This document shows, in pieces, positions 37,957 to 64,000 of a stretch of 64,000 nucleotides of DNA. The DNA comes from Centroscyllium fabricii (taxonomy: Eukaryota). The stretch's first letter is position 1. Each line of letters begins with the position of its first letter. The stretch spans positions 22,878,001 to 22,942,000 of the forward strand of contig JBNRSN020000020.1 in assembly GCA_051313645.2 (NCBI GenBank), written 5' to 3'. The translations under genes and the position numbers were made by a program. The notes beneath the pieces were generated by a model, which ran no database searches, was not told where the DNA came from, and saw nothing but the letters and a program-made list of their open reading frames with translations.

Positions 37957-38097
37957 AGGGACAACTGTGAACTCAACTTCATCTGAGATGTGGAGCTGGA
38001 GACTATCCATGATCTCACTAAAGTGGAAGAACATTCGAGCATCTCGATCTACACATTTAATGAAACCAAAACCATCTCTCATGGCTGCAATCACACC
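37957..38097 (-). CDS. CSDE1: CSDE1 coding exon (141 nt): [47 protein letters not shown]
   Basis: Cold-shock domain nearly identical to UNR; tag acceptor at 38098-38100, gtaag donor at 37952-37956. Confidence 0.98.
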
Positions 38098-44286: not shown

Positions 44287-46080
44287 ACATAAGAACATAA
44301 GAAATAGGAGCAGGAGAAGGCCAATCGGCCCTTCGAGCCCGCCCCGCCATTCAATAAGATCATGGCTAATCTGATCCTAACAACCAATCTACTATCACAG
44401 AAGCATCTCCTGAATCGAACAGAATTAGACACACGAAGTAGGAGCAGGATCAAGCTACACGGTCCCTGGGCCCACTCCACTACCCACAGGACCATGACCG
44501 ATCTGAACCTAGACTCATGTCCAAATTCCTGCCCGCTCCCTGTAACCCTTAATCCCTTTTACTTCTAGGAAACGGTCTATTTCTGTTTTAAATTTATGTA
44601 ATGATGTAGCTTGTACAGCTTATTGGGGCAGCATGTTCCATGGACCTACCACCCTGAGTGAAGTAGTTTCTCCTCATCTCAGTTTTGAAAGAGCAGCCCC
44701 TTATTCTAAGTTTATGCCCCCTAGTTCTAGTTTCACCCATCATTGGGAACATCTTCCCCGCATCCACCCGATCCAACCCCTTCACAATCTTATATGTTTC
44801 AATAAGATCGCCCCTCATTCTTCTGAACTCCAATGAGTAGAGTCCCAATCTACTCAACCTCTCCTATGTCCAACCCCTCATCCCTGGGATTAACCGAGTG
44901 AACCGTCTTTGAACTGACTCGAGAGCGAGTATGTCCTTTCTTAAGCATGGACACCAAAACTGTATGCAGTATTCCAGGTGCGGTCTCACGAATACCTTGT
45001 ACAACTGAAGCAATACCTCCCTATTTTTATATTCTATCGCCCTAGCAATGAAAGCAAACATTCCATTGGCCTTCTTAATTACTTGCTGCACCTGCATACT
45101 AACCTTTTGAGTTTCGTGCACCAGGACCCCCAGATCCCTTTGTACTGCAGTACTTTCCAGTTTCTTGCCATTAAGATAATAATCCACTCTGATTTTTCCT
45201 GCCAAAATGCATAACCTCACACTTTTCAGTATTGTACTCCATCTGCCAAATCTCTGCCCACTGACTTAGCCTGTCTATGTCCCCCTGCAGGTTCTTTATG
45301 TCCTCCTCATTCACCACTTTCCCTCCCATCTTAGTATCATCTGCAAACTTTGATATGTTACACTCGGTCCCCTCCTCCAAATCATTGATATAAATTGTAA
45401 AGAGTTGGGGACCCAGCACTGACCCCTGCGGAATACCACTAGTTACCGATTGCCAGTCGGAGAATGACCCATTTATCCCAACTCTGAAAGCCAATCCTCT
45501 ATCCATGCTAGAATATTACCCCCAATTTCATGATTTTTTATTTTAAGCAGTAATCTTGTGTGGCACCTTGTCAAATGCCTTTTGAAAGTCTAGATATACT
45601 ACGTCCAGCGGTTCCCCTTTATCCACCCTATATGTTACTTCTTCAAAGAACTCCAACAAATTTGTCAAACAAGATTTCCCCTTCGTAAAACCATGCTGAC
45701 TTTGCCCTATTAAATTAAGTTTATCCAAATGTCCTGTTACTGTCTCCTTAATAACGGACTCCAAAATTTTACCCACGACAGATGTTAGGCTATAATTTCC
45801 AGCCTTCTGTCTACTGCCTCTTTTAAATAAGGGGGTTACATTCGCAGTTTTCCAGTCTGCCGGGACTTTTGGAAAATTATTACCAATGCATCCACAATCC
45901 CTACCGCCACTTCCCTCAAAACCCTAGGATGTAAGCCATCAGGTCCAGGTAATTTATTCACCTTGAGCCCCATTAATTTACTGAGTACCACTTCCTTAGT
46001 GATTTTGATCGAGTTTAGCTCCTTCCCCCCATAGACCTCCGTTTGTCCAGTGTTGGGATATTCTTAGTGTCCTCCATATT
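44287..46080 (-). mobile_element. CR1 LINE, 5'-truncated, degraded
   Basis: ORF pieces QHGFTKGKSCLTNLLEFFE, YLDFQKAFDKV, GIPQGSVLGP, KFADDTK, RPHLEYC; (ttcttatg)n tail. Confidence 0.93.
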
Positions 46081-46122
46081 GCTCTCACCCAAGATAATGA
46101 ATAGTCCGAAGAGGAAACATAC

Positions 46123-48866: not shown

Positions 48867-49797
48867 TTGAGAAAGCGGGGAATTACAGACTGGCAAGCCC
48901 GACATCGGTAGTGGGGAAAATGCTAGAGTCCATTATAAAGAATGTAATAGCTGAGCACTTGACAGGATCGGACAAAGTCAACATGGATTTACAAAAGGTA
49001 AATCGTGCTCGACTAATCTATTGGAATTTTTTTGAGGATGTAACTGGAAAAATAGATAAGGGAGAACCAGTAGATGTGATGTATTTGGACTTTCAAAAGG
49101 CTTTCGATAAGGTCCCACATAAGAGATTAGCGTGTAAAGTTAAGGCACATGGGATTGGGGGCAAGGTATTGTCTTGGATAGAGAACTGGTTGGCGGACAG
49201 AAAGCAGAGAGTAGGAATTAACGGGTCTTTTTCCAAGTGGCAGGCAGTGACTAGTGGGGTACCACAGGGATCGGTCCCAGGACCCCAGCTATTCACGATA
49301 TACATTAATGATCTAGATAAGGGAAGTAGATGTAATATCTCCAAGTTTGCAGACGACACAAAGCTGGGTGGGCTTGTGTGCTGCGAGGAGGATACCGAGA
49401 AACTCCAGGATGATTTGGACAGGTTGGGTGATTGGGCAGAAGCAATATAACGTGGATAAATGCGAGGTCATCCACTTTGGTGTCAAAAACAGAAAGGCAG
49501 ACTATTATCTGAATGGCAATAGATTGGGAGAAGGGGAAGTGCAACGAGACCTGGGTGCTATTGTGCACCAGTCGCTGAAGGTAAGCATGCAGGTGGTGAA
49601 GAAGGCAAATGGTATGTTGGGCTTCATAGCAAAAGGGTTTGTAGATATATTTCTTAGAGCTAAAGGTATCAAGGGATATGGGGAGAAGGCAGGTACGGGG
49701 TACTGAGTTTGGATGATCAGCCATGATCTCATCGAACGGTGGAGCAGGCTTGAGGGGCAGAGTGGCCTACTCCTGCTCCTATCTTCTATGTTTCTAT
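48867..49797 (+). mobile_element. CR1/HER1-like LINE fragment with an internal deletion; 3' tail shared with HE1 SINEs
   Basis: RT motifs YLDFQKAFDKV, GVPQGSV, KFADDTK; tail 'ttggatgatcagccatgatctcat...cctactcctgctcctatcttctatgtttcta'. Confidence 0.9.
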
Positions 49798-50202
49798 ATA
49801 TAGCACCTTTACATCTTTGAAACCTCCAACTTAGCTGATATTCTGCTTCTCTATCTGTTCTTGGGTCCATTTTCTCTCAGACTCCGAATCGGAACCTCTA
49901 TCATTGAATGGTGGCTGCTTCCAACTCCCCATCCCACCTACAGATGGACTTAATACCTCGGCAGCTTCCTGTCCCCCAGACTTCAATTCTGAACTGATTC
50001 ACATTCTCCACCCTGTTCAATTCTGAACTGCTACCCATTTTGTCTAGTTTCCACCACGTCTTTAGAATTCCCCTTTGGCCCATTCACATGCACACCATGG
50101 CTGTCACTCCAGCCCACTATTTCTAGTTCCATTTTTTGGACCCCTCTCCTCATCCAGCCATGCCAACTTTCATCTCCCTTTCCACCCAGCCCCTAGTATT
50201 TT

Positions 50203-51250: not shown

Positions 51251-52253
51251 TTTTTGTGGACCCTCAGGGATATCATCTCCTTGGCCCAAGAAGTTGACTG
51301 TACAGAGGAAATTGCTAACTTCTGACTGGTCACTTCAGTGAATTTGGCTCTTCAAATTGCAATTCCACTACAATCTGCTCTAATTATTTTCTGCATTAAA
51401 AAGTAATTTTGTAAAAGGCCACATCGTGGTCAGATGGCAAACCTATACAGTACTCAGAAGAGGCGCTCCAAGAAAGAGTTATTACTTTAAAATGTTGAGG
51501 AATTGATTTTCCTGTCAGAATTAAAAAATAAACAAACTTGCGTCACTGTGCGGAAATAGAGTACCATCTAACTAGTGGCAAACTAGCTGAAGTGCCTTCA
51601 TGTGGAAAGGACCGATTGCAAGCGCCCAAAATATTACCAACAACAATTCTGGCAATACCTATTTAACAGCAACAGCATCTTCAGCTCCACATACTTCTCT
51701 TGACAATTTTCACTTGCTGGCAGAGTTTTTAATGTTACAATTATCTCCTTTTTCGTCTCCTTCCCACTACAACTTTAAATCCATCCTCTCCCATAAACTG
51801 ATTCATTTTTAAACTATGGCAACAAATGGACGTCATAAAAAACAAGGTTTCTAAAAAATCTTAGAATGTTGTAGTTAAATAATTAAAATTCTCTATTTGA
51901 CTACCGATGTAATTTCCATAGCAGACTGATTAATGCAAGTATTTTCTGTTCATGTTACCACACAGAAGGATTATAGAAAATTATTCCCATCTTTTAGATA
52001 CTTCTGGCAAGGTAAATTTTGTTGATGTGCTACAGCATTAATGCTTGGTCCCTCATTTAAGCAAGCAATTCAATTACTAAACCAGTAAGTATATTCATGA
52101 TAATACACATGCTATCTATTCAGGATATTAATAGCTTCATCAGGGCTTCGGACTTGAATATTTTGTTGCTATTTTGCTGGAATTTATCAAGCAACACGGT
52201 CCAATCACAAAAAGTATACCAAGACTTTAATAAACCAAGGTGGCCATACATAC

Positions 52254-52351
52254 TGTTTATTGGTTTCCATGGAAAAAGAAACTTTATCTCCTGTTTCAAG
52301 TTGGACATTTCCATCAACATCTTCAGGTGTGTATGTCAGATAAAATACTTC
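52254..52351 (-). CDS. CSDE1: CSDE1 coding exon (98 nt): EVFYLTYTPEDVDGNVQLETGDKVSFSMETNK(H)
   Basis: Manual translation matches UNR EVFYLTYTPEDVEGNVQLETGDK; tag acceptor at 52352-52354, gtatg donor at 52249-52253. Confidence 0.97.
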
Positions 52352-55300
52352 CTAAACCACCAAAAAGTAATCAGTTAGCTTTTAAATGAAGTTCACGTTC
52401 CTTAGTACAATTATGTACAGTAAATTAAAAACTTCTTTTAGCTTAAATGTTTGTGTATGCAATAATGTACCACCAGCTTCCTGCTAAAATGGTCAAGATA
52501 GAGGAAAGTACTTAAATGTCAAGTTTCTAAAAGAGGATTTATATAACTTGTAGCTAGTTGCCATTAGCGCTATTCAGCTAGCTGTAATAAATACGCCACC
52601 ATTACAATCGAAGACACTGATATACAGCCCTAATCATTCAGACTTTAGCCTATATTAAGAGGCTGCCTGTTTAAAGATGGTTGCTATAAACAGCCTTGAA
52701 GACAACATTTTGCTGGCCCTACAGTACCAAATTAGCAGATAGATAGTGGTACACACAGTTACGGTCTGGAAAATCTGAACACTCAAAACATGCAGGCAAA
52801 AAACTAGATAGCAGTTTTTAAAAAAGGTTAAACAAACATTAAAACAGCAACATAAAAATACTAATTACAGGTGCACAAGACCTGCTGCACAGATTATACA
52901 TTATATTTCAAACATCTGGCCCATCATTTTTTAAATTTAAAAACCCCAATTTTTGTGGACAATTTCTCTGTGAAACAGTGCGACATTTCTCTATAACTAG
53001 CCCGTGGGAAAAATGCACGACTGATTAAAATTAACTTTCAGGAGGGAATCTACATTTAATTTATTGCCATCAGTTGGCAACAGCTCAGATTGGAACACGG
53101 GATTTCAAGTACAAGCTGATACTTTCGAAAGTATTTACTCGAAGTTATCTTTTTCACCAATTCCATTTAAAATCTAACAGTTTACACATGGCTCATGGTG
53201 GCAAGAGTGTTGTCAATCTTGCTCAAATGCAGGGAATATCAGCTGAGCCCAATCCTGTCCTCACCCAATGTTCACACAGATGCATTTCTAGTCCTGGACA
53301 ATCAGAAGGAACCTGGATCAATTCCCCCAAACCCAGGGTCATTGAAGTCAATTCCAGCGCCACTACTGATGCCCAGCCGAGATCAGTTAATTCAGACTGG
53401 TCACAGATCAAACCTCGCACTTTTCTAGTCTCTAAAGCTCAGCTATTCAATTGAAAAACAACCACTGGGGATGCCTATAATGCTCGGCATGCAGCAATCA
53501 CTTCTTTCAAGTACAACAGAAAATTGCTATAAATATTCTTCCTTCCTAATTTTTCATACCCACTGAACCATCTGACTAAGCAGTCAACGTGCTTGAATGC
53601 CACCCTTGAACCAGCCACGAGAACATTTTTACATTCCCTCACCACCTTCTATGCCACCTCCACCAAAGCAGCACAGCAGAGATCAAGTAGTTAGTATGTG
53701 GAGATTAAGAGGGGGCAAGAAAGAGGAGACGCAAACATTTATAGGCCAATTACATAGTTTGCATCAATGCAAACTATGCAGTTCAATTCAGATAGGAAGT
53801 CACCCAATAAATAGTCTCAACACTTAAGATGTTGTGAAGCAAAGTTTAACAAATTACTAGAAGGTCCACTGGAGTACTTGAAACATTTTGAACTAACAGA
53901 CAATTAAGCAGAATTTGGATGCAAATACAAAGTTCCCATTTTCCCTAATCACAGCACTAAAGAGGCAGCAGGATAGCAGGTCTGCCAGTCTTTTGCTGTG
54001 AACAGGTACTAGCCTCAAAACTGGCACACATAGTAAGACACTTAAAACAAATGGAGTGGGTTGGAGGAGGGTAAATGGGTTGGATGACACGGTTCCACCG
54101 TAAACGAAAAAGGTATCGGATTTTCCCCACTCAAAACCATCCAAATCTATCTGTAAATTGTTGCATCTTGGTGGGTAAAGAAAAAGTTAGCTGTGCAGAA
54201 ATGGACATTAACCACATGCTCAACATTATTACACAGAATTACAAAGTGTTATAAAATTCCTCAAAAGGTCAGTCTCCCATTTACACTTGGGTTTAGCTCG
54301 AAACGTGCCAATTAAATGTTTTACATACTCTGGTAGATAACTGCTTCCCTTATAACATGCTTCAATGGTAACCCAGTATTGGGAGGAAAATTAATTCAGC
54401 TAAGAGGAGAGAAGGGCAAGATAGCATATGGTAGACATTTTAAAGACACAGATTACTGCAGTAGCATTTCCTTGAGAAAGGCTCGGTGCTAAAGAGTTCC
54501 AAAGCAATACCCTGAGAAGAAGAAAAACTAACAGACGCCAAGTAGCTCAGTGGCTCAGGCCATTGGCAGAATGCAATTCCCCACAGGGTACAGATACAGA
54601 ACAAGTGAAAATATTCAAAGGGCAGATGCATTTGCACCACTCAACTGAGTGACCAATTTAATAGCATTACATTTACAGTAGGTCGAGGAACAGGTCACCT
54701 ATCCACCTGGGTGAAGAAATGGTGCAAGAAACAGAGGTAGGAGATTGAGGCCAGCTGCCAAGATTCCTCTTCTCCCATAGTTTGTCCAACCAAACTAAGC
54801 AGTGCTCCTTAGTCTGGGTATGACCGGAGCAGCTCCAAAAGCTGTCAGAAATGATGCAGCCCTCAGCTGGGAAGATATTTAACTAGAATACAGCACTTCC
54901 TACTGGCGAGGGGAGCTCAATCTCAGACTCACAAACAAGGTAAAGTAACAGGACACCGCTTCCTTAAAAAAGGGGCCAAAAATGGTCCAGTTTAGTCCAC
55001 ATAGTTCAATAAAAGCAATCTGCCTTGCAACAATCCATTTTTTTCTATGATTGTTTCCAGGAAAGCTTCAGATGGATGAAAGTAGAGCCTCTACAAAGCA
55101 AGACTGGTTTAACAGAACTTGGAGCCTGCCCTAGGTAAAGGCTCAAGGGCTTCTTGCATGCCGATCTACAGGACCACAAGACTGCATTCTGTATGCAGAA
55201 ATAACCAATAAAAAGGCAGCTTTCTATAGCATTTCACCATAAGCTGGGTACCAATAAGCATGGAAAGGACCTTTCAAATCCCACTATAGAAAAGAACTCC

Positions 55301-58300
55301 ATTTATAAGCCAAGACGTTTTTCAAGGGGTATACCAGGATTCTCACTGCCCTTCTTCCACCCCCTTCCCTAACAGAAGACAAGAGTGAGATAACCTTAGG
55401 TCTTCATTCAATACTGTCCCAAAGATCTAAACAGCCACATTAGAACAAATAGGTTTTAAGACGTCAAAGACAAACAGGACAAGAAAACTTGCAATCCATT
55501 TTCTTTGGCGCTTACCTAAACAAATAATTAAATGGTTCCATCAAAAAACACAAAAAAAATAGGTCTAACACGGATGTTACCCAAACATTTTCTTTTAAAT
55601 AAATAAAAAATATATTCAGTCTTAAGTTTATATAGATCAGGATGCTGTTGAATTTTTAGACATATTGAGAAGTAATTCAGGAGAAGGTTGTAGCAACACT
55701 GAATTAACTAACACCACAGACCGCACCAAAATGCTCAACATTCGAGTCCTAATGGTCACTGCCATTACACTGAAGCGCCAATGTACATTGTGAAGCGAGG
55801 GTGGTGCAGCACTATCTCTCTACTCTGATAACTTCCAAATCTCTACCAGTGTTATGGGAGGTACTGAGTGGAGACCAGAAACTTCTCCACAAGAGTCAAA
55901 AATAAGCTGCTTTCACACCCGTCCCCAGCCAGTTCTAAACAACAGCAGGAAGCAGTTCATCCACAGGATGTTACAGGTCATGCAAGGTCAAGGATTGGGG
56001 GTGGGCAGGAATATAAAGGATGAATAACCCTTAAAGTATCTCCATGAACAAACTGAAGTAAAACATTAACTGTGCACAATGCTTTGAGAGTACAAACCCA
56101 ACTTTGTTTTATCCCTACCCCACTCCCCAAAGTTTCCCAAGGGCTAGGCCAACTGCAGACAACCTACTTCCAGATTAATGCTCTACCACTCAATCAACTG
56201 CACAATAGTGATACTCTGGCATTTTCCCGACCCCCACTTCACTACAAGGAAACACCTAGTTTCTTCTCCATACCCTCCCCACAGCAACAAGCTGAATGCA
56301 GAACTCGTGCTGTGTGGAATTATGGGTATAAATGCATCCCACACTAATATCCCAACATGCTGCATCACCACTGCTTCCGTGCACAATGCTTTTTGATTTC
56401 CACTAAAAAACAAATGGACCCCAACCTTCTGGGCAGTACTGTAAGTTACAATTCGCTGCAAAGCATCCAAAAGTAGGATATTCCACTGTGTTGGTAAATA
56501 TGGTCTTGGTGCCATGAGGCGGACACAAGAGCTGGCTGACCACACAGACAAATGAAGTGCAGAACCAACCCAATTGCTTTCAACTCAAATCGATTTATTG
56601 CTGCGCTACTGAAAGCTCCCACTTGAAACATGCTTAAATACCTTCTCAATCAAGTACATGCTGCAACTGGAAAACTGATGTTACTGAGAGACAGCATAGA
56701 ACCCCATCTACCCTCAAAGTAACCGGTTCACAAACATCTTTCAGAGGACTGCAATACTAAACAACTATTAAATATAAATGTCACCACTTTTAGCAACATA
56801 GCCAACAAAGGTTCTGGGCCAGTGATTGGCATCAAATTCCCCATCAATTGCGAGATGGCATTTTACATTTAGTCTCATTGTTACAGTCCCCAAGATACAC
56901 CACGTCCGAAGCATGCGAGTTAGTTATAAAGCAGGAAAGAAACTAGGTCCTGAACTACATTATCAATATGGAGATCAGTCAATGCCCTAGATCGGTGACT
57001 TGGTTGGCCATTGTAACCTGCTACACAAACTCACTAGCTGCGTCTGGACATTATGGCACATCCTCAATGCTACCTCCATCACGGACAGGATTAGGAACAG
57101 GTCATACTCTAGTTTGAAGATACTGTAGTGGGCAAATAGCAGGCCGTCTGTTCTAAAGAGTGCGGAGATTGAACTGACACAGCCTTTTTCCAAATGGACT
57201 TGCCCAACAAAGTCCTCAATAAAAGGAGCAAATCCCAAGGATTTTGACAACCAAATTTGTACTCCTGTTTCATCACAGACAAAAGGCAGTTAACTCTCTC
57301 ATGATAGTCCAAGAAATGAACAAAGGAAATGCTGTCTCAACAATCGTAATCTAATGAAGTCCTCCTTTTTAAAAGGGGTTGCCACTTGTTCACTCCTCTC
57401 AAACACATCATAAAGTGCAGCATAATCTATCAACGGGCACTAATTTGTAGTTGGAAGTTTTAAAACTGGTACTTGGCAAAGAACAGAAATTTCACGAAAA
57501 AACCATGGAGGTGAAATTTAAAACGAAGGAAAAAAACAAAACTGAATGTGATGCTGTCGGCAGGTGATTTTATTTACAGGAATAGCATCACATGGTTACT
57601 CTATGCAGGGCATAATCATACTTTGAAAAAGGGATGGATTTAAAAAAGGTATGCTGTAGTGAATTCACTCAAGGGATTGCTGGACATTTTCATGGTATGT
57701 GGAGGATAATGCAGAAAAGAAATTATTCCAGGAAAATGCCAAAGCATTCAAGGAGAAACAGCAAATCCCTATTACCAAAATTTCAAGGCGGCCAATTTTG
57801 CCCTTGTTGCAAAATGACAGCAGAATAACTCCAGCAGTTGAACAGCCAATATTCAGCTCGCTGAAGTCCAGTTAGTTGCCCATTTCTACCATGTAAGTGG
57901 CCAGGAATCTTTGATGGGTCTAATACCAAACCCTGAAGCACACAAAACAGACAACACCTATTACAGTTGCTTTCCTACACAGTTTCAGGCAGGAAGTGTG
58001 GAGTCAATACAATATGGTTCCAGAAACCTGTTCCCTGATTAAATTGAAGTTATTCATGTTGCTGAAATTTATCAGCTTGTAGTTAGTTAAGGTTATATCC
58101 ATTTACTTATCTCATGCCCAACTTGGAATCACAGTGGCCAACGTGTCAAAACCTTTGTTAAGATGAGTTATTAGATGTGGAGCATTCGCAATTACTTTTT
58201 AAAGAGAGGTTCTCCACCAAACAATCCACGAAAGTAATATCCTTGTGGGGGAAAAAAATCCTTCCTCTGGCAAAGAAACCAATTCATTGCCTGCTGTGGA

Positions 58301-59764
58301 AATCAACCACAATATAAAAAAGGAAGTCCTGTGATGAGCGAGTGTGGAATTCAAAGTTTCAGAAATCCCATTTTCTACAATAGGGATACTGCCGTACGTT
58401 GAAATGTTAAAGCATTTTTACACAACGTATTGCTGCTGATGTTTTTGTTCAAGTTAGTCACTGCACAAGAGACCAACATCTTTAGTTGAGATGAGTGCAG
58501 GCAATACACTGATCTACAGCAGACACAATCTTGGAATGTGTAAAAACAAGCCAACATCACAAACGCACTTTACAATTACCGTGGCTACCTCTGATAACCA
58601 GAACAAGAGAACTTTGCATCAGATACTCAATCCATAGATTAGAACAAGGCAAACGAATGTGTTCCAAGAGGGTCAGGATTGGAAGCATACAGTTTTAAGG
58701 TTTATAGAAGCCAACCATTCACTCTGAACAACTGGCAATCTTTTCCAAGTACATAATTTTGATCTATTTTCCCCACTGGAAGCCCTTCCAAATGAGTTGA
58801 CAGCAGATTCTTCCCACCATTCTTGCTCCTAAAAATCAGACAACAGGGGTTAAAGTGGAATTGTCCTCAGCCATAGAAGGTCTGCTTCTTGAAACCTTTC
58901 TATTGCTTAGAGAAAAATGTAAGTTTCGCCATAGCTTTGTCCTGTGTACTGCTCTCCAACGACAGCTTAGGCCAGAAAATCTGCCCAATAACCCAAGACA
59001 GGAGCCATCTCAGCACAAAAGAATGGAACACAAGCCCTAGTGATAATAGCATCACATGCTGTCAGATCATGCATCTTCTTTCACACAAGGTTCGGGTGTC
59101 ATCAGCCATGTGCATCTCTGGTATCCAGGAATTCTTATGTCCATTTTGACCCTCTATGTACTGCATATTTGCATAAACAAATACCTTTCCCTTAAACCAA
59201 TACAGGGTGATATCTTGGAGCTTGTTGATGAGGCTCCATCCGCAGGTAAAGATGCTGAAATCAATGTTCGTAAGGTGCTGCAAGGATCCAGTTTTTTTCC
59301 CAGGGACTGAAACAAGCATTTGTATTAAACTACAAAAGGTGGCAAATCTTCCAAGTGTATTAAAGGTCATGCACAGCACACACTGAAGGAATGTAGCTTG
59401 GAGCCACACAGTTTCTGCAGTGGGAGAATCTGGTTGATACATCAAAGCCACATTTGGACATTTCCATGCTTTTGCCAAACAAAACGGATCTTTTTGCTTC
59501 ATTATGTACATTGTGAAACTACAGTCTTTAAAAAACAAAGTTTAGAAAAAACTAAACTTATAATTAAACAAAGTTTACCCCACAGGAGTGTTTTACAATG
59601 ACTTTTCTTCTTCAAACACTACCCAACTGACAAAGAGGCCAAAATTACCACTCAGCAAAGCCAAGAGTAAAAGGACCAAGGTTAATGGGGTATGGAATTT
59701 AATTTGGGGTGGAAGGTTACCCACAACATAGGAGCCATCCAATTTAAAACAATCTGGCTGACGT

Positions 59765-59776
59765 ATGCATGCATGC
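59765..59776 (-). promoter_or_regulatory. Overlapping (T)GCATG Rbfox-type splicing motifs downstream of the cassette exon
   Basis: Minus strand reads gcatgcatgcat, ~75-85 nt into the intron. Confidence 0.55.
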
Positions 59777-59850
59777 CTAAACTCAAGTGCCTGTATGGGC
59801 GACCTACCTGAAGATCATTTATTACCTGGAAAGACAAAATCCAATCTTAC

Positions 59851-59949
59851 CCCATTGCGTTCATAGCACACACTGCCTGAAGTCTGACCAGGAGATGAAG
59901 CTTTCAGCCCAGATTTGTTCTCAAGGTTAAGGGGAGCAGCACAGACAAC
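59851..59949 (-). CDS. CSDE1: CSDE1 coding cassette exon (99 nt), homologue of the alternatively spliced UNR 'exon 5': VVCAAPLNLENKSGLKASSPGQTSGSVCYERNG
   Basis: Homologous to VVCAVPHNLESKSPAAPGQSPTGSVCYERNG; cag acceptor at 59950-59952, gtaag donor at 59846-59850; phase 0/0. Confidence 0.95.
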
Positions 59950-60566
59950 CTGGACATACCATGACATAACAAAGAATAATGTCAGGAGGGTACATGAAGG
60001 CTTTCCAGGGGTTGAAAATGCCACTGGTCCAAGGCCCCAGGTCTCTCTATTTTTGGGTTTAGACCAGCAGAAAATATTCCTCCAATGTCTTATGAACTGG
60101 TGGAAAAACTGTGACCTTCTGTTATAGTACCAGATTTCTGCCCCTGGGTATCCCAGTCATACTACAGCACTTATGGTGTCTAGCAGCAGTAATTCGGTAC
60201 TGAAACAGTAATATCAGACCTGCAATGGCCCAACAACCTGAATATATTGGCAGCGTCTGTTTCCAAACCACTACATCCAACTTTTCAACCCCTGATTTCC
60301 AGATGATTTGTTGGCAAAAAAAAGTTCTCTTAAAAAAGGTCAGTGGTTGCCAAGAAACTGTTTTAGTTGTTGAAGACACCAACAGTAAGCAATTTGCAGA
60401 CACTGTTCTATTAAAGAAAGGTAGCTTACTCACCAATAGGTATAGTTTCCTTCAATCATGAAAATAAGTTATCCTCCACATACCATGGGAAATATCAAGT
60501 GATACAATGGGATAAGCACTACAGTCATCTGTCCCTTCAAGAGATTTACCCTGGAGTATGCAACTT

Positions 60567-60704
60567 CCCTCCCACACACCCAAATATATGTGGGAAACCT
60601 CTTTCCAATCCCCTCCCACACCCCCAAATATATGCAGGAAACCTCTTTCCAATCCCCTCCCACACACCCAAATATATGCGGGAAACCTCTTTCCAATCCC
60701 CTCC
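60567..60704 (+). repeat. 44-bp tandem repeat, 3 units
   Basis: Unit ccctcccacacacccaaatatatg[tg/ca/cg]ggaaacctctttccaatc. Confidence 0.93.
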
Positions 60705-62659
60705 ACCAAAAGTCCGTTTTCACTTAATTTCAAGAAGGGTATGTACATTCCATGGTGTTAAGATATCCAGAACAAGTCAGACCTTTGCGCTTCTTAAAAC
60801 CAGGAACATAAAAAGTATCAAAATGGAAAGCCACATACAAGAACCCCATTATTGAAGCAAGGGCTAGGTTTGGGGGAGAAGGGTCAGGGAAGAGGAGAGA
60901 GACAAGGAACAGTATGTAGAGTACAACTTCAAAATAAAATGGAATTTATAAAAAAAGAGTAAATACACTTAATTTGTTATTATCCTCCACAAACCACGCA
61001 TACCTCAGAGAAAGCAAGAGTCAGAAAGACCTTACTAGTTAGATTCGGACAGGCTAACCGTCCTGTCAAACTAATATCCCCATTAGCAGCCAAATCACAG
61101 CATTTGCAGACAGTATGAATATTATGCCACTGTGGTCCACACTGCAATCCATGTTGACTTTTTTTTGTGTGATCAAGGTAGGTAGAAGGTCATGAAGCCA
61201 CCCAGAATTCAGACACCGCAGTTAGCAGGAATTCAAGAGTTCACACAAGCTCATCGTAAAACAAAAAAGGCACTAAAACATGTCGTTCACTCACCCTGAT
61301 ACTCAAGCCACAAGAATGACAGTCCCCCACATTAGATACTGTCCCATAGCTAATGAATAAACAGATTCAAACCCACACTAGTGCTGATCTTCTCTGCCCC
61401 CCTTCATAATTTTACTAAATAGATTACCCATTCAACTCCTCTAATGGAGTGCAGAATGCAGATTATAATTCTTGTGCATCACAATGGAACAGTGTTCCAC
61501 ACCCTTTTGTAAACACTGCAGGCAACAAGACCTTAGGGACTGCACACATGGCAAGCCCTTCTCGGCCTACCAAAAATGAGAAATCTTTTCTAATCACTCA
61601 GTGATGGATTAACTGAATGCCGTATCTGCAACTGTGGACCAATTAGTTAATCTGTAAGAGTCAGGGAAAGGACCGTACAACATACAAAACATTCCTGCCT
61701 GTTGAAAAGCCCGTCTCCAGAAAGGAGGGGAAATCTAACAACAATTAGAATGAACCAGATTCCCTCCTTCTCTACCCCAATAACCTAATGAATTAGAACA
61801 CATGTAATCTCTCCACCGGGATGATCGTCTGATGAATTAGAACATGCAGGAATTTATCCCCCCATCAAAAAGAGACTTGTTTATTCAGGGAATACAATGT
61901 CAGATTTTGGAGGGCCCTTTTGCAAGGGTACATCATTCACCTGCTTTAGTGTTTGGCCAGCCAATTGGGTTGCCAGCACGGACATCCAATCTCAAATATC
62001 CTGAAGGGGCACCATTCCTCTTAATTTAACAAAATTCAACCACGGCAGTGCTAGCCATCCACACAAGACCAACTGACCTTAACAGGGTTGAAAATACTCG
62101 ACACCCAACCAAGACAAACAGAACAAAGAAACCATGTGGTCTTTCCCTACAAGTTCCCCAAATGTCGTCTTCCTCCAGTTGGGGTATCTGTGGAGATAGT
62201 TGTAGCATTAAAAGCCCACCAATATATCTGTAGCTTTTCTACCACTGAAAATCTTACACCAATGTATTACCCATCCCAATGATCACATACGCTGGATGAT
62301 TGTGTGTAATTTAGTCACAGTGATCTTAAACCAACGTACAATACAACCAATATGGTCGTCAGCACTAGCCGGAGCCCCAGTACTCGTATGGTCTGATGAG
62401 CAGGGTTCCACTTCCGAGAATCTGGAATTTCGATTCCAACTTAAAGCAATACCTTAGTTAACTCCGACACGTGTCCAGGTTTGGTAATAGGTCTGGGCAG
62501 TTCTCCGAGTTCCTTTCTCAGCTCAGTATGTGTTCTCACTGAGCAACTATTCACAAATGAGTGAACATACCTTTAATTTCTCCTGTTCACTTTATAGCAT
62601 AGGAATAAAAGTTGACATGAGGTGGGGTGATGAAAGGAGAAGAGGGGGATAAAACGTGC

Positions 62660-62705: not shown

Positions 62706-64000
62706 ACAATACAATCCCCACGTACATTTTGATAGACTCTCAAAAAAGAGTACCATCAAGCTTTCCTTGCTCTGGTACTCTCTGGTCAAATCGATTGCAA
62801 CATTTACCATACAATCTCCCTCCTGTTCTCCCCACCCAGGTCTCTGGTGGTACTGGTGATGAGCCAGTCAGGATGATGACTATGAGGCTACCTTACTATT
62901 GTGTCCAGTTGGTGGTCATTTGCATGACAATTGTGCTTTAGTCTTTTGCAGGGTTGCCCTCTGAGACAGAGAGCAGCCTCTGTTTCACAGGGCAAATTTG
63001 AGGGAGGGGGGGAAAAGAGAGGAGGAAAGAAAAGCAAGAAAGATTGGGTAGAGAATATCTGTACGAAATAGAAACTAATAAAAAGCTTAGTGCAACTGAA
63101 GGGCAATTCAATTGGAAAAATTCATTGATTTTTATTTTAATCGGTGCATGCCTGTAGAACAGGCAGGCCCAAATGCCAGGACTGTACAGATCCCATGCAT
63201 CTGCAGACTGTACATCTACACAGCATTCTCAATAAGAAAGACTGGGTCTGTAATGTCTAACCCAGTTGGGCCACTAGTATAAGCAATATGCCTAGCACAC
63301 AGAAAAGGATAAGCAAAACAGAGCTCCCACCGCTCGTTAGGAAGCCCATCTGTAAACGTTTTATTACTGACAGCAACAAACCCCCCATAACGTACAAGCA
63401 TGACACAAACAGTCATATACCTGAATGCTGTGACAGTCCCCACAGTTAATATGGTCCAAAAGTCTAATGAATAGCAAATTACATTGATTTCAAAGGTGGT
63501 GATTGACTGACTGTTTGAGGCACAGAGCTCTTTCCCTCCTGACCTACCCAATGTTTTTCTTACAAATTAAATAAGGAGCACAGACCAGAAATATTGGGCT
63601 TGACACGGATTGTGTCATGGAAAAATTTAATCATTGCGTTGGGAATGTCAGTTCCATAACCACACTCCTCCTGAGCCACCATTAGTTCAACGATCAGTGA
63701 AATCTCAACCACCTAAAAGCAAGAGCGGTTTCCCTGCAGGCGTTTGAATTTCTATATACACTTACCTGATGAGATCTTCACTACTGAAGTACAGATTTGC
63801 ATTCTGGCACAGAATTTATGCCAGCATTTGACCACACTTGTTTTCTGTGCAGATTCTGGGTCTTCCGTTTATTTCCATGGATATTAGAACTGCCTCCTCT
63901 TGAAACAGTAAAAGTTCTATAAATTCCAAAATTCTCAAATGATTTTTTTTTTTTTTTTTTTAATTGAGAAAACGGATTGAAGGGCCAAGACCTTTCGTGC

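Follow-up and report, generated by a model that had tools for sequence, protein, structure and literature searches.

The CSDE1 cassette exon and its surroundings

The window, that is, the whole stretch of 64,000 nucleotides analyzed here, carries part of the CSDE1/UNR gene on its minus strand. Sixteen coding exons of this gene were placed by six-frame motif searches and tblastn over the window and the adjoining genome stretches, and one downstream exon proved 100% identical to shark CSDE1 proteins, which makes the source a cartilaginous fish. The gene assignment of the initial annotation is borne out. At 59851..59949 (minus strand) lies a cassette exon equivalent to exon 5, which is 99 nt long, encodes 33 residues in phase 0/0 and contributes to the second, non-canonical cold-shock domain; aligned with the Drosophila CSD1-2 structure 6Y6M, it falls within the second domain. 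Outside the window, the upstream exon extends to extended coordinate 65833 (minus strand, locus L002), where it ends with EERITGQ and the letters CAG. The downstream constitutive exon, which starts with EVFYL, occupies 52254..52351 (minus strand) and is joined directly to the upstream exon in two of the transcript data sets described below (X4 and X5). Both flanking exon junctions are in phase 0, in agreement with the phase first read from the letters. The intron which follows the cassette (52352..59850, minus strand) measures 7,499 nt and is unspliced in part-spliced transcripts.

Alternative use of this exon is apparent from protein sequences. The CSDE1 protein set was drawn from 120 of 1,121 hits, with at most 15 members per cluster, and consists mostly of automatic gene models; 238 proteins were fetched, and 230 were parsable at the cassette position after exclusion of eight (five SIKE1, two N-truncated models and one aberrant model). 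The cassette is included in 166 of these 230 proteins, three of which are Callorhinchus models with extra upstream residues, and skipped in 64, so that its designation as a 99-nt cassette is upheld. In mouse, exon 5 of CSDE1 (32 codons) has been described as alternatively spliced (PMC5805679, excerpt). As a translation regulator, CSDE1 is dosage-sensitive, and it is around cold-shock domains 1-2 that its isoforms differ.

The cassette codon at 59899-59901 (minus strand) specifies Ala here and Pro in all other cartilaginous-fish proteins seen (LKASSPG vs LKPSSPG). The gene holds a second cassette, an in-frame 141-nt exon starting with GVIAAM (37957-38097, minus strand), which is skipped in some shark isoforms, e.g., P0004, with loss of part of a canonical cold-shock domain. 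A 46-codon upstream exon, heart/muscle-enriched in mouse, is also present (locus L003, extended coordinate ~77220-77358, minus strand). The muscle-specific CSDE1 exon, considered as a possible counterpart of the 99-nt cassette, was set aside as a different, upstream exon, as far as the available parts of the sources tell (PMC4736020; PMC4111849; preprint 2025.07.02.662769). Repeat elements and disrupted fragments of LINE reverse transcriptase are found in CSDE1 introns (44500-46100 and 49100-49800). A repeat or paralogue origin of the region was rejected, as it has a single genomic match by DNA and by protein.

Splice signals downstream of the cassette donor

Donor sites were scored in two ways: by a matrix of nine positions, small, home-made and crude, which was derived from the 15 other donors of the gene, and by their pairing energy with U1, whose 5' end sequence was taken from this genome. 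The annotated donor of the cassette, D1 (GGG/GTAAGA, the slash marking the splice point; 59845..59853, minus strand), is modest: its matrix score of 7.4 is exceeded by 14 of the 15 other donors, and its U1 duplex reaches -9.2 kcal/mol. It is followed by a 25-nt stretch (59850-59826, minus strand) which ends in a U-rich pyrimidine tract and CAG (59826..59839, minus strand). This tract is acceptor-like, with a score of 10.2 within the range of the real acceptors (2.3-13.7). From its letters, it would also be a candidate U2AF/TIA/PTB-type site. Directly after the CAG, at +25, stands a second donor-like site, D2 (CAG/GTAATA; 59820..59828, minus strand), with a matrix score of 9.5 and a U1 duplex of -8.1. 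As the upstream exon also ends with CAG, splicing onto 59825 would rebuild the 9-mer of D2. The hexamer AATAAA, read from the sequence, overlaps D2 (59818..59823, minus strand) and is directly followed by a TGA (59817-59815) which is the first stop in the cassette's own frame; with 49 occurrences in the gene span (0.45/kb), the chance of finding such a hexamer within 43 nt is about 2%. At +43, a third site, D3 (CAG/GTAGGT, with its GT at 59807; 59802..59810, minus strand), scores 7.2 by the matrix and pairs with U1 at -11.8, a strength that none of the 16 real donors scored attains (their best being -11.5). D2 and D3 delimit a stop-free segment of 18 nt (59808..59825, minus strand; VINDLQ), a candidate microexon or RS-exon.

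Further into the intron, a tandem GCATG/TGCATG is found within GCATGCATGCAT (59765..59776, minus strand), which we take to be a candidate RBFOX-type motif; GCATGCATG has one further occurrence in 104.8 kb. The minus-strand letters given in the initial annotation for the exon, D1, the 25-nt stretch, the 18-nt segment, D3 and the tandem were reproduced exactly. On the other side of the cassette, a donor-like ATG/GTATGT, D0 (59954..59962, minus strand; matrix 6.7, U1 -5.3), is embedded in the cassette's own acceptor tract, 10 nt before its AG. Neither D0 nor the AATAAA hexamer had been pointed out in the initial annotation. The region folds no better than shuffled sequences (z +0.82 and +0.57), which leaves a donor-hiding hairpin without support, and Rfam returned no match up to E=1 in 58500-61000. 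In the upstream intron, a strong donor CAG/GTAAGT at 63765 (minus strand), preceded by purine-rich sequence, possibly belongs to a cryptic exon; it is one of only four intronic sites matching D3 in U1 pairing.

The splice-signal cluster is real and locally improbable. By the matrix, 166 of 104,021 intronic 50-nt windows (0.16%) contain at least two sites that equal or surpass the weaker extra site, and by U1 pairing energy 0.30% of them do, figures to be read with the small size of the matrix and the post hoc choice of the site from a 64-kb window in mind. With the same reservation, no AG/GT with an acceptor score equal to or above that of the +25 site was found in the 104,756 intronic bases of the gene. 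The 15 other donors all lack a pair of extra donor-like sites within 60 nt, as well as a GCATG within 130 nt.

Conservation and transcripts of the region

Contigs from four runs (X1, X2, X4 and X5), representing three other organisms and three studies, were aligned to 52000-60500. These are four of 24 listed runs, the small-share runs X6-X18 having been left out. The data consist of contigs only and were taken as RNA by guess, an assumption which their spliced junctions support. In X4 (organism B), the alignment covers 59747-59952 at ~97% identity, with three substitutions and a single 4-nt gap (59761-59764), and thereby defines a conserved intronic block (59747..59850, minus strand) which encloses D1, the tract, D2, D3 and the GCATG tandem. 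The gap, the only X4 indel in the block, falls beyond the tandem, and one of the three changes probably corresponds to the Ala/Pro codon of the cassette. Alignment is observed at the level of the block, within which each of the AG/GT pairs is probably kept, two scattered changes having a ~92% chance of missing all eight key AG/GT bases. Deeper in the intron, only one 24-nt piece is found among the X4 alignments listed, and little else aligns at 85%; in the upstream coding exon, 3 of 26 letters differ (a loose-end fragment compared by eye). Over 59613-59952, the X5 contig aligns with 20 mismatches and 18 gap positions. X5 also reveals small conserved islands of the downstream intron at 59613-59746, 59444-59473 and 59101-59133 (minus strand). 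In the close relative (organism A, X1), the piece which contains the block, coding exon included, differs at 7 of 457 positions vs 133 of 3,080 over the remaining seven intron pieces listed (Fisher p=0.003).

Upstream of the cassette, the Callorhinchus gene model P0155, which reads into the intron, shares 14 codons (~42 nt) with the translation of this genome, D0 included; the cassette is thus bracketed by conserved donor look-alikes. A degenerate exon-end pattern search retrieved one locus in metagenome contigs (L010), none in viral contigs and one chance match in bacteria. This L010 locus, an exon 5 of bony-fish type with 86 nt of intron, shows no D0, D2, D3 or tract and retains only a GCATG at +12 from the donor. 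The high conservation expected of the cryptic element of a decoy exon is thus observed at block level in cartilaginous fishes and is absent from L010. Likewise, lack of conservation of the extra AG/GT dinucleotides, which had been named as grounds for dismissing the cluster, is contradicted at block level in cartilaginous fishes and holds in this one bony-fish-type locus. The element uc.34, considered as an ultraconserved element of CSDE1, was rejected since it lies in PTBP2.

Each of the four runs has a contig that opens on 25-26 upstream-exon letters, joined to 59949, and then crosses D1, D2 and D3 without a break to enter the intron (depths 51.4, 16.5, 4.25 and 16.3). Part-spliced contigs which run on into the downstream intron are thus seen in four out of four runs, and may or may not correspond to the retention known for the host intron of a decoy exon. 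Over the final 550 nt of the upstream intron, depth is 0-2.4, while contigs of X1 and X2 cover 25 and 23, respectively, of 30 bins of the downstream intron. Skipping is directly visible as an upstream-to-downstream junction in X4 and X5 (55.9 and 697). A rough decomposition of depths gives ~130-200 for the exon vs ~10 for the intron, which makes intron retention probably a minor fraction. The junctions that the initial annotation had looked to for a verdict did not appear: among the joints and loose ends listed for the four contig sets, none enters 59825 and none leads from 59826 or 59808 to 52351. As the ordinary junction from 59851 to 52351 is absent as well among the listed joints, all that can be read from this blank is that neither a microexon nor an extension form predominates in these samples.

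Competing explanations and known systems

The observed motifs, their local rarity, the block-level conservation, the skipping and the part-spliced RNA are the basis on which we favor, with somewhat less than even confidence, a reading of the 104 nt after the exon-5 donor as a conserved decoy or competing-donor element which tunes skipping and delays intron removal. U1 bound to D2 (+25) and D3 (+43), and perhaps to D0, would compete with the modest D1, and a pyrimidine-binding factor on the U-rich tract may add to this competition. As a result, the cassette would often be skipped and the downstream intron removed late, the direction of the effect being one that we infer. RBFOX at the GCAUG tandem would be the likely tissue-specific modifier, and such real splicing as occurs now and then at +25 or +43 would be cleared by NMD. 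The presumed outcome is a set ratio between full-length CSDE1 and a form lacking 33 residues of the second cold-shock domain. Consistent with a decoy exon, where multiple splice sites compete within an intron of more than 1 kb, three donors (D1, D2 and D3) and one AG are gathered here within 43 nt of a 7,499-nt intron. Late removal, for its part, does not single out a decoy, since introns beside alternative exons are slow in general (PMC4281565, excerpt).

The stronger U1 pairing of D3 relative to D1 would fit real use of D3 equally well. The +25 and +43 sites could be productive alternative donors coupled to NMD, i.e., a poison extension which lowers CSDE1 mRNA, possibly in a feedback loop of either CSDE1 or RBFOX, and we regard this possibility as unlikely. 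A stop codon is expected to trigger NMD when a downstream junction follows it at a distance of over 50-55 nt, and splicing at D2 or D3 would place it 69 or 105 nt, respectively, before the next one. Both products would therefore be NMD substrates, as the initial annotation had anticipated for its extended forms. The same 50-55-nt rule is quoted in PMC4281565 (excerpt). D2 outscores D1 by the matrix and D3 does so by U1 pairing, the block is conserved in a gene for an RNA-binding protein, and NMD products would be absent from protein sets and assembled contigs. Against this, no joint from 59826 or 59808 is listed in the four runs, which is a weak argument, a protein with the read-through tail occurs in none of 22 hits nor in further protein searches, and the acceptor-like tract is left unexplained. 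Read-through or truncated CSDE1 proteins, sought as a proxy for conservation, were likewise absent, the 16 hits of one search being all non-CSDE1 by motif check. Conserved flanks are common beside alternative exons. An ordinary conserved intronic enhancer or silencer, made of a U-rich TIA/PTB-type tract and RBFOX sites and with an incidental AG/GT look, would account for conservation of the entire block beyond the dinucleotides alone and for the sole retention of GCATG near the donor of L010 (+12). Two good U1 matches in 43 nt, one of them the best of the gene, and a third upstream would be unusual for such an element, and we consider it distinctly unlikely.

Microexons range from 3 to 27 nt. 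The 18-nt segment fits this range, is flanked by AG and GT, stop-free and in frame (phase 0/0), and could replace the 99-nt exon, the 25-nt spacing building in steric exclusion between the two. It could also act as a recursive site or RS-exon: the upstream exon would be spliced to the AG at 59826, CAG/GTAATA would be rebuilt, and either net skipping or retention of 18 nt through D3, located 18 nt further, would follow. The acceptor score is in the real range, the composite of acceptor and donor is unique in the introns of the gene, an RBFOX-type motif lies downstream, and RS-exons and EJC-repressed microexons are known (PMC6224609, excerpt). Nevertheless, only two branch-point candidates are available for the 59826 AG, one inside D1 and the other inside the 99-nt exon, and both score 1 of 3 on a crude motif score on which 15 of 16 real acceptors reach 2-3. 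Nothing microexon-like is carried by any of the 230 parsed CSDE1 proteins, and contigs pass 59825 unbroken in four out of four runs, with none of the listed loose ends there. In the part available of PMC6224609, the RS-lariat table contains CSDE1 once, with a site starting with AT and not GT. In addition, the shortest real intron of the gene measures 306 nt, which agrees with the earlier remark that 25 nt is too short for an intron. Both options, which had been put forward along with the NMD one, thus find no support in the proteins, the branch points or the listed joints, and we hold them to be quite improbable; a rare or tissue-restricted isoform of either kind is possible but unsupported. 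The hexamer at 59823-59818, AAUAAA in the transcript, raises another scenario, to which we give only a very slight chance, in which U1 masks an intronic polyadenylation site and its departure from D2 and D3 lets the transcript end there, the frame stopping at the next codon to yield a short protein whose sole cold-shock domain is the first. The overlap with D2, the in-frame stop directly after and the ~2% chance within 43 nt are in its favor, as are, by eye, U-rich sequence upstream and GU-rich sequence downstream, and HIV-1 and BPV offer examples of poly(A) sites blocked by U1 at a neighboring donor (PMC2874999, excerpt). However, four of the six letters of AATAAA come from the donor-like motif itself, no truncated protein was found in the protein searches, and contigs extend past the site in four out of four runs with no poly(A) loose end among those listed, the latter being weak evidence. 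It is very doubtful, finally, that the 43 nt form a multi-way switch with D2 as both recursive splice site and lid on the poly(A) signal; equally doubtful is the set of outputs that such a switch might deliver through U1, EJC and RBFOX, namely, full-length CSDE1, a skipped or 6-residue-microexon form by the recursive route, an NMD product and a protein with a single cold-shock domain.

As a decoy or competing-donor element, the cluster would be a concrete candidate, open to mutation, for what governs the choice of exon 5. Should mammals have a counterpart, this control would be testable by a few point changes; if it is confined to cartilaginous fishes, it would represent a lineage-specific solution for an ancient cassette, of narrower interest. 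No description of a cluster beside exon 5 was found in the CSDE1 splicing literature searched, mostly open-access, and, according to the available part of a 2024 review, information on how CSDE1 mRNA processing is regulated is lacking (PMC11005786).

Among known systems, the exon-5 cassette of mouse CSDE1/UNR is the same exon, with the same include/skip pattern across the 230 vertebrate proteins, while a flanking cis-element such as that of the shark is not described in the portion available of that work (PMC5805679). The CT/CGRP intronic element, which combines 5' and 3' splice sites with a pyrimidine tract (PMC2874999, excerpt), resembles the shark element in the tandem of pyrimidine tract, AG and donor after a regulated exon, in not being known to be spliced and in the proximity of a poly(A) signal. 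It differs in that its poly(A) site is upstream and stimulated, whereas the shark element has AATAAA inside, two donors and an internal cassette (PMC2874999, excerpt). With RS-exons and EJC-repressed microexons, the shark element shares the AG directly before a rebuilt donor and a second donor, here 18 nt on; unlike RS-exons, it has only poor branch-point candidates and no part-spliced intermediate among the loose ends listed, and it lies 25 nt from another donor (PMC6224609, excerpt). As for detained introns, persistence of the downstream intron after removal of the upstream one is alike in the contigs studied here, and "intron_5" of mouse Csde1 (1,043 nt), which may or may not correspond to the shark intron, figures in the detained-intron list (PMC4281565, excerpt). 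Conserved decoys with several competing splice sites occur in large retained introns (PMC6097662, excerpt). They sit inside the intron with branch-point room, while the shark element is 25 nt from the cassette donor; CSDE1 is absent from the supplements of this work that were searched, and the shark element is a putative member of the decoy exons (PMC6097662, excerpt). The decoy exons of SF3B1, OGT, ARGLU1 and DDX39B are likewise conserved and short, with competing sites, in an intron of more than 1 kb of a gene for an RNA-binding protein; their host introns are retained, and that of the shark element is seen unspliced in part-spliced contigs (PMC6097662, excerpt).
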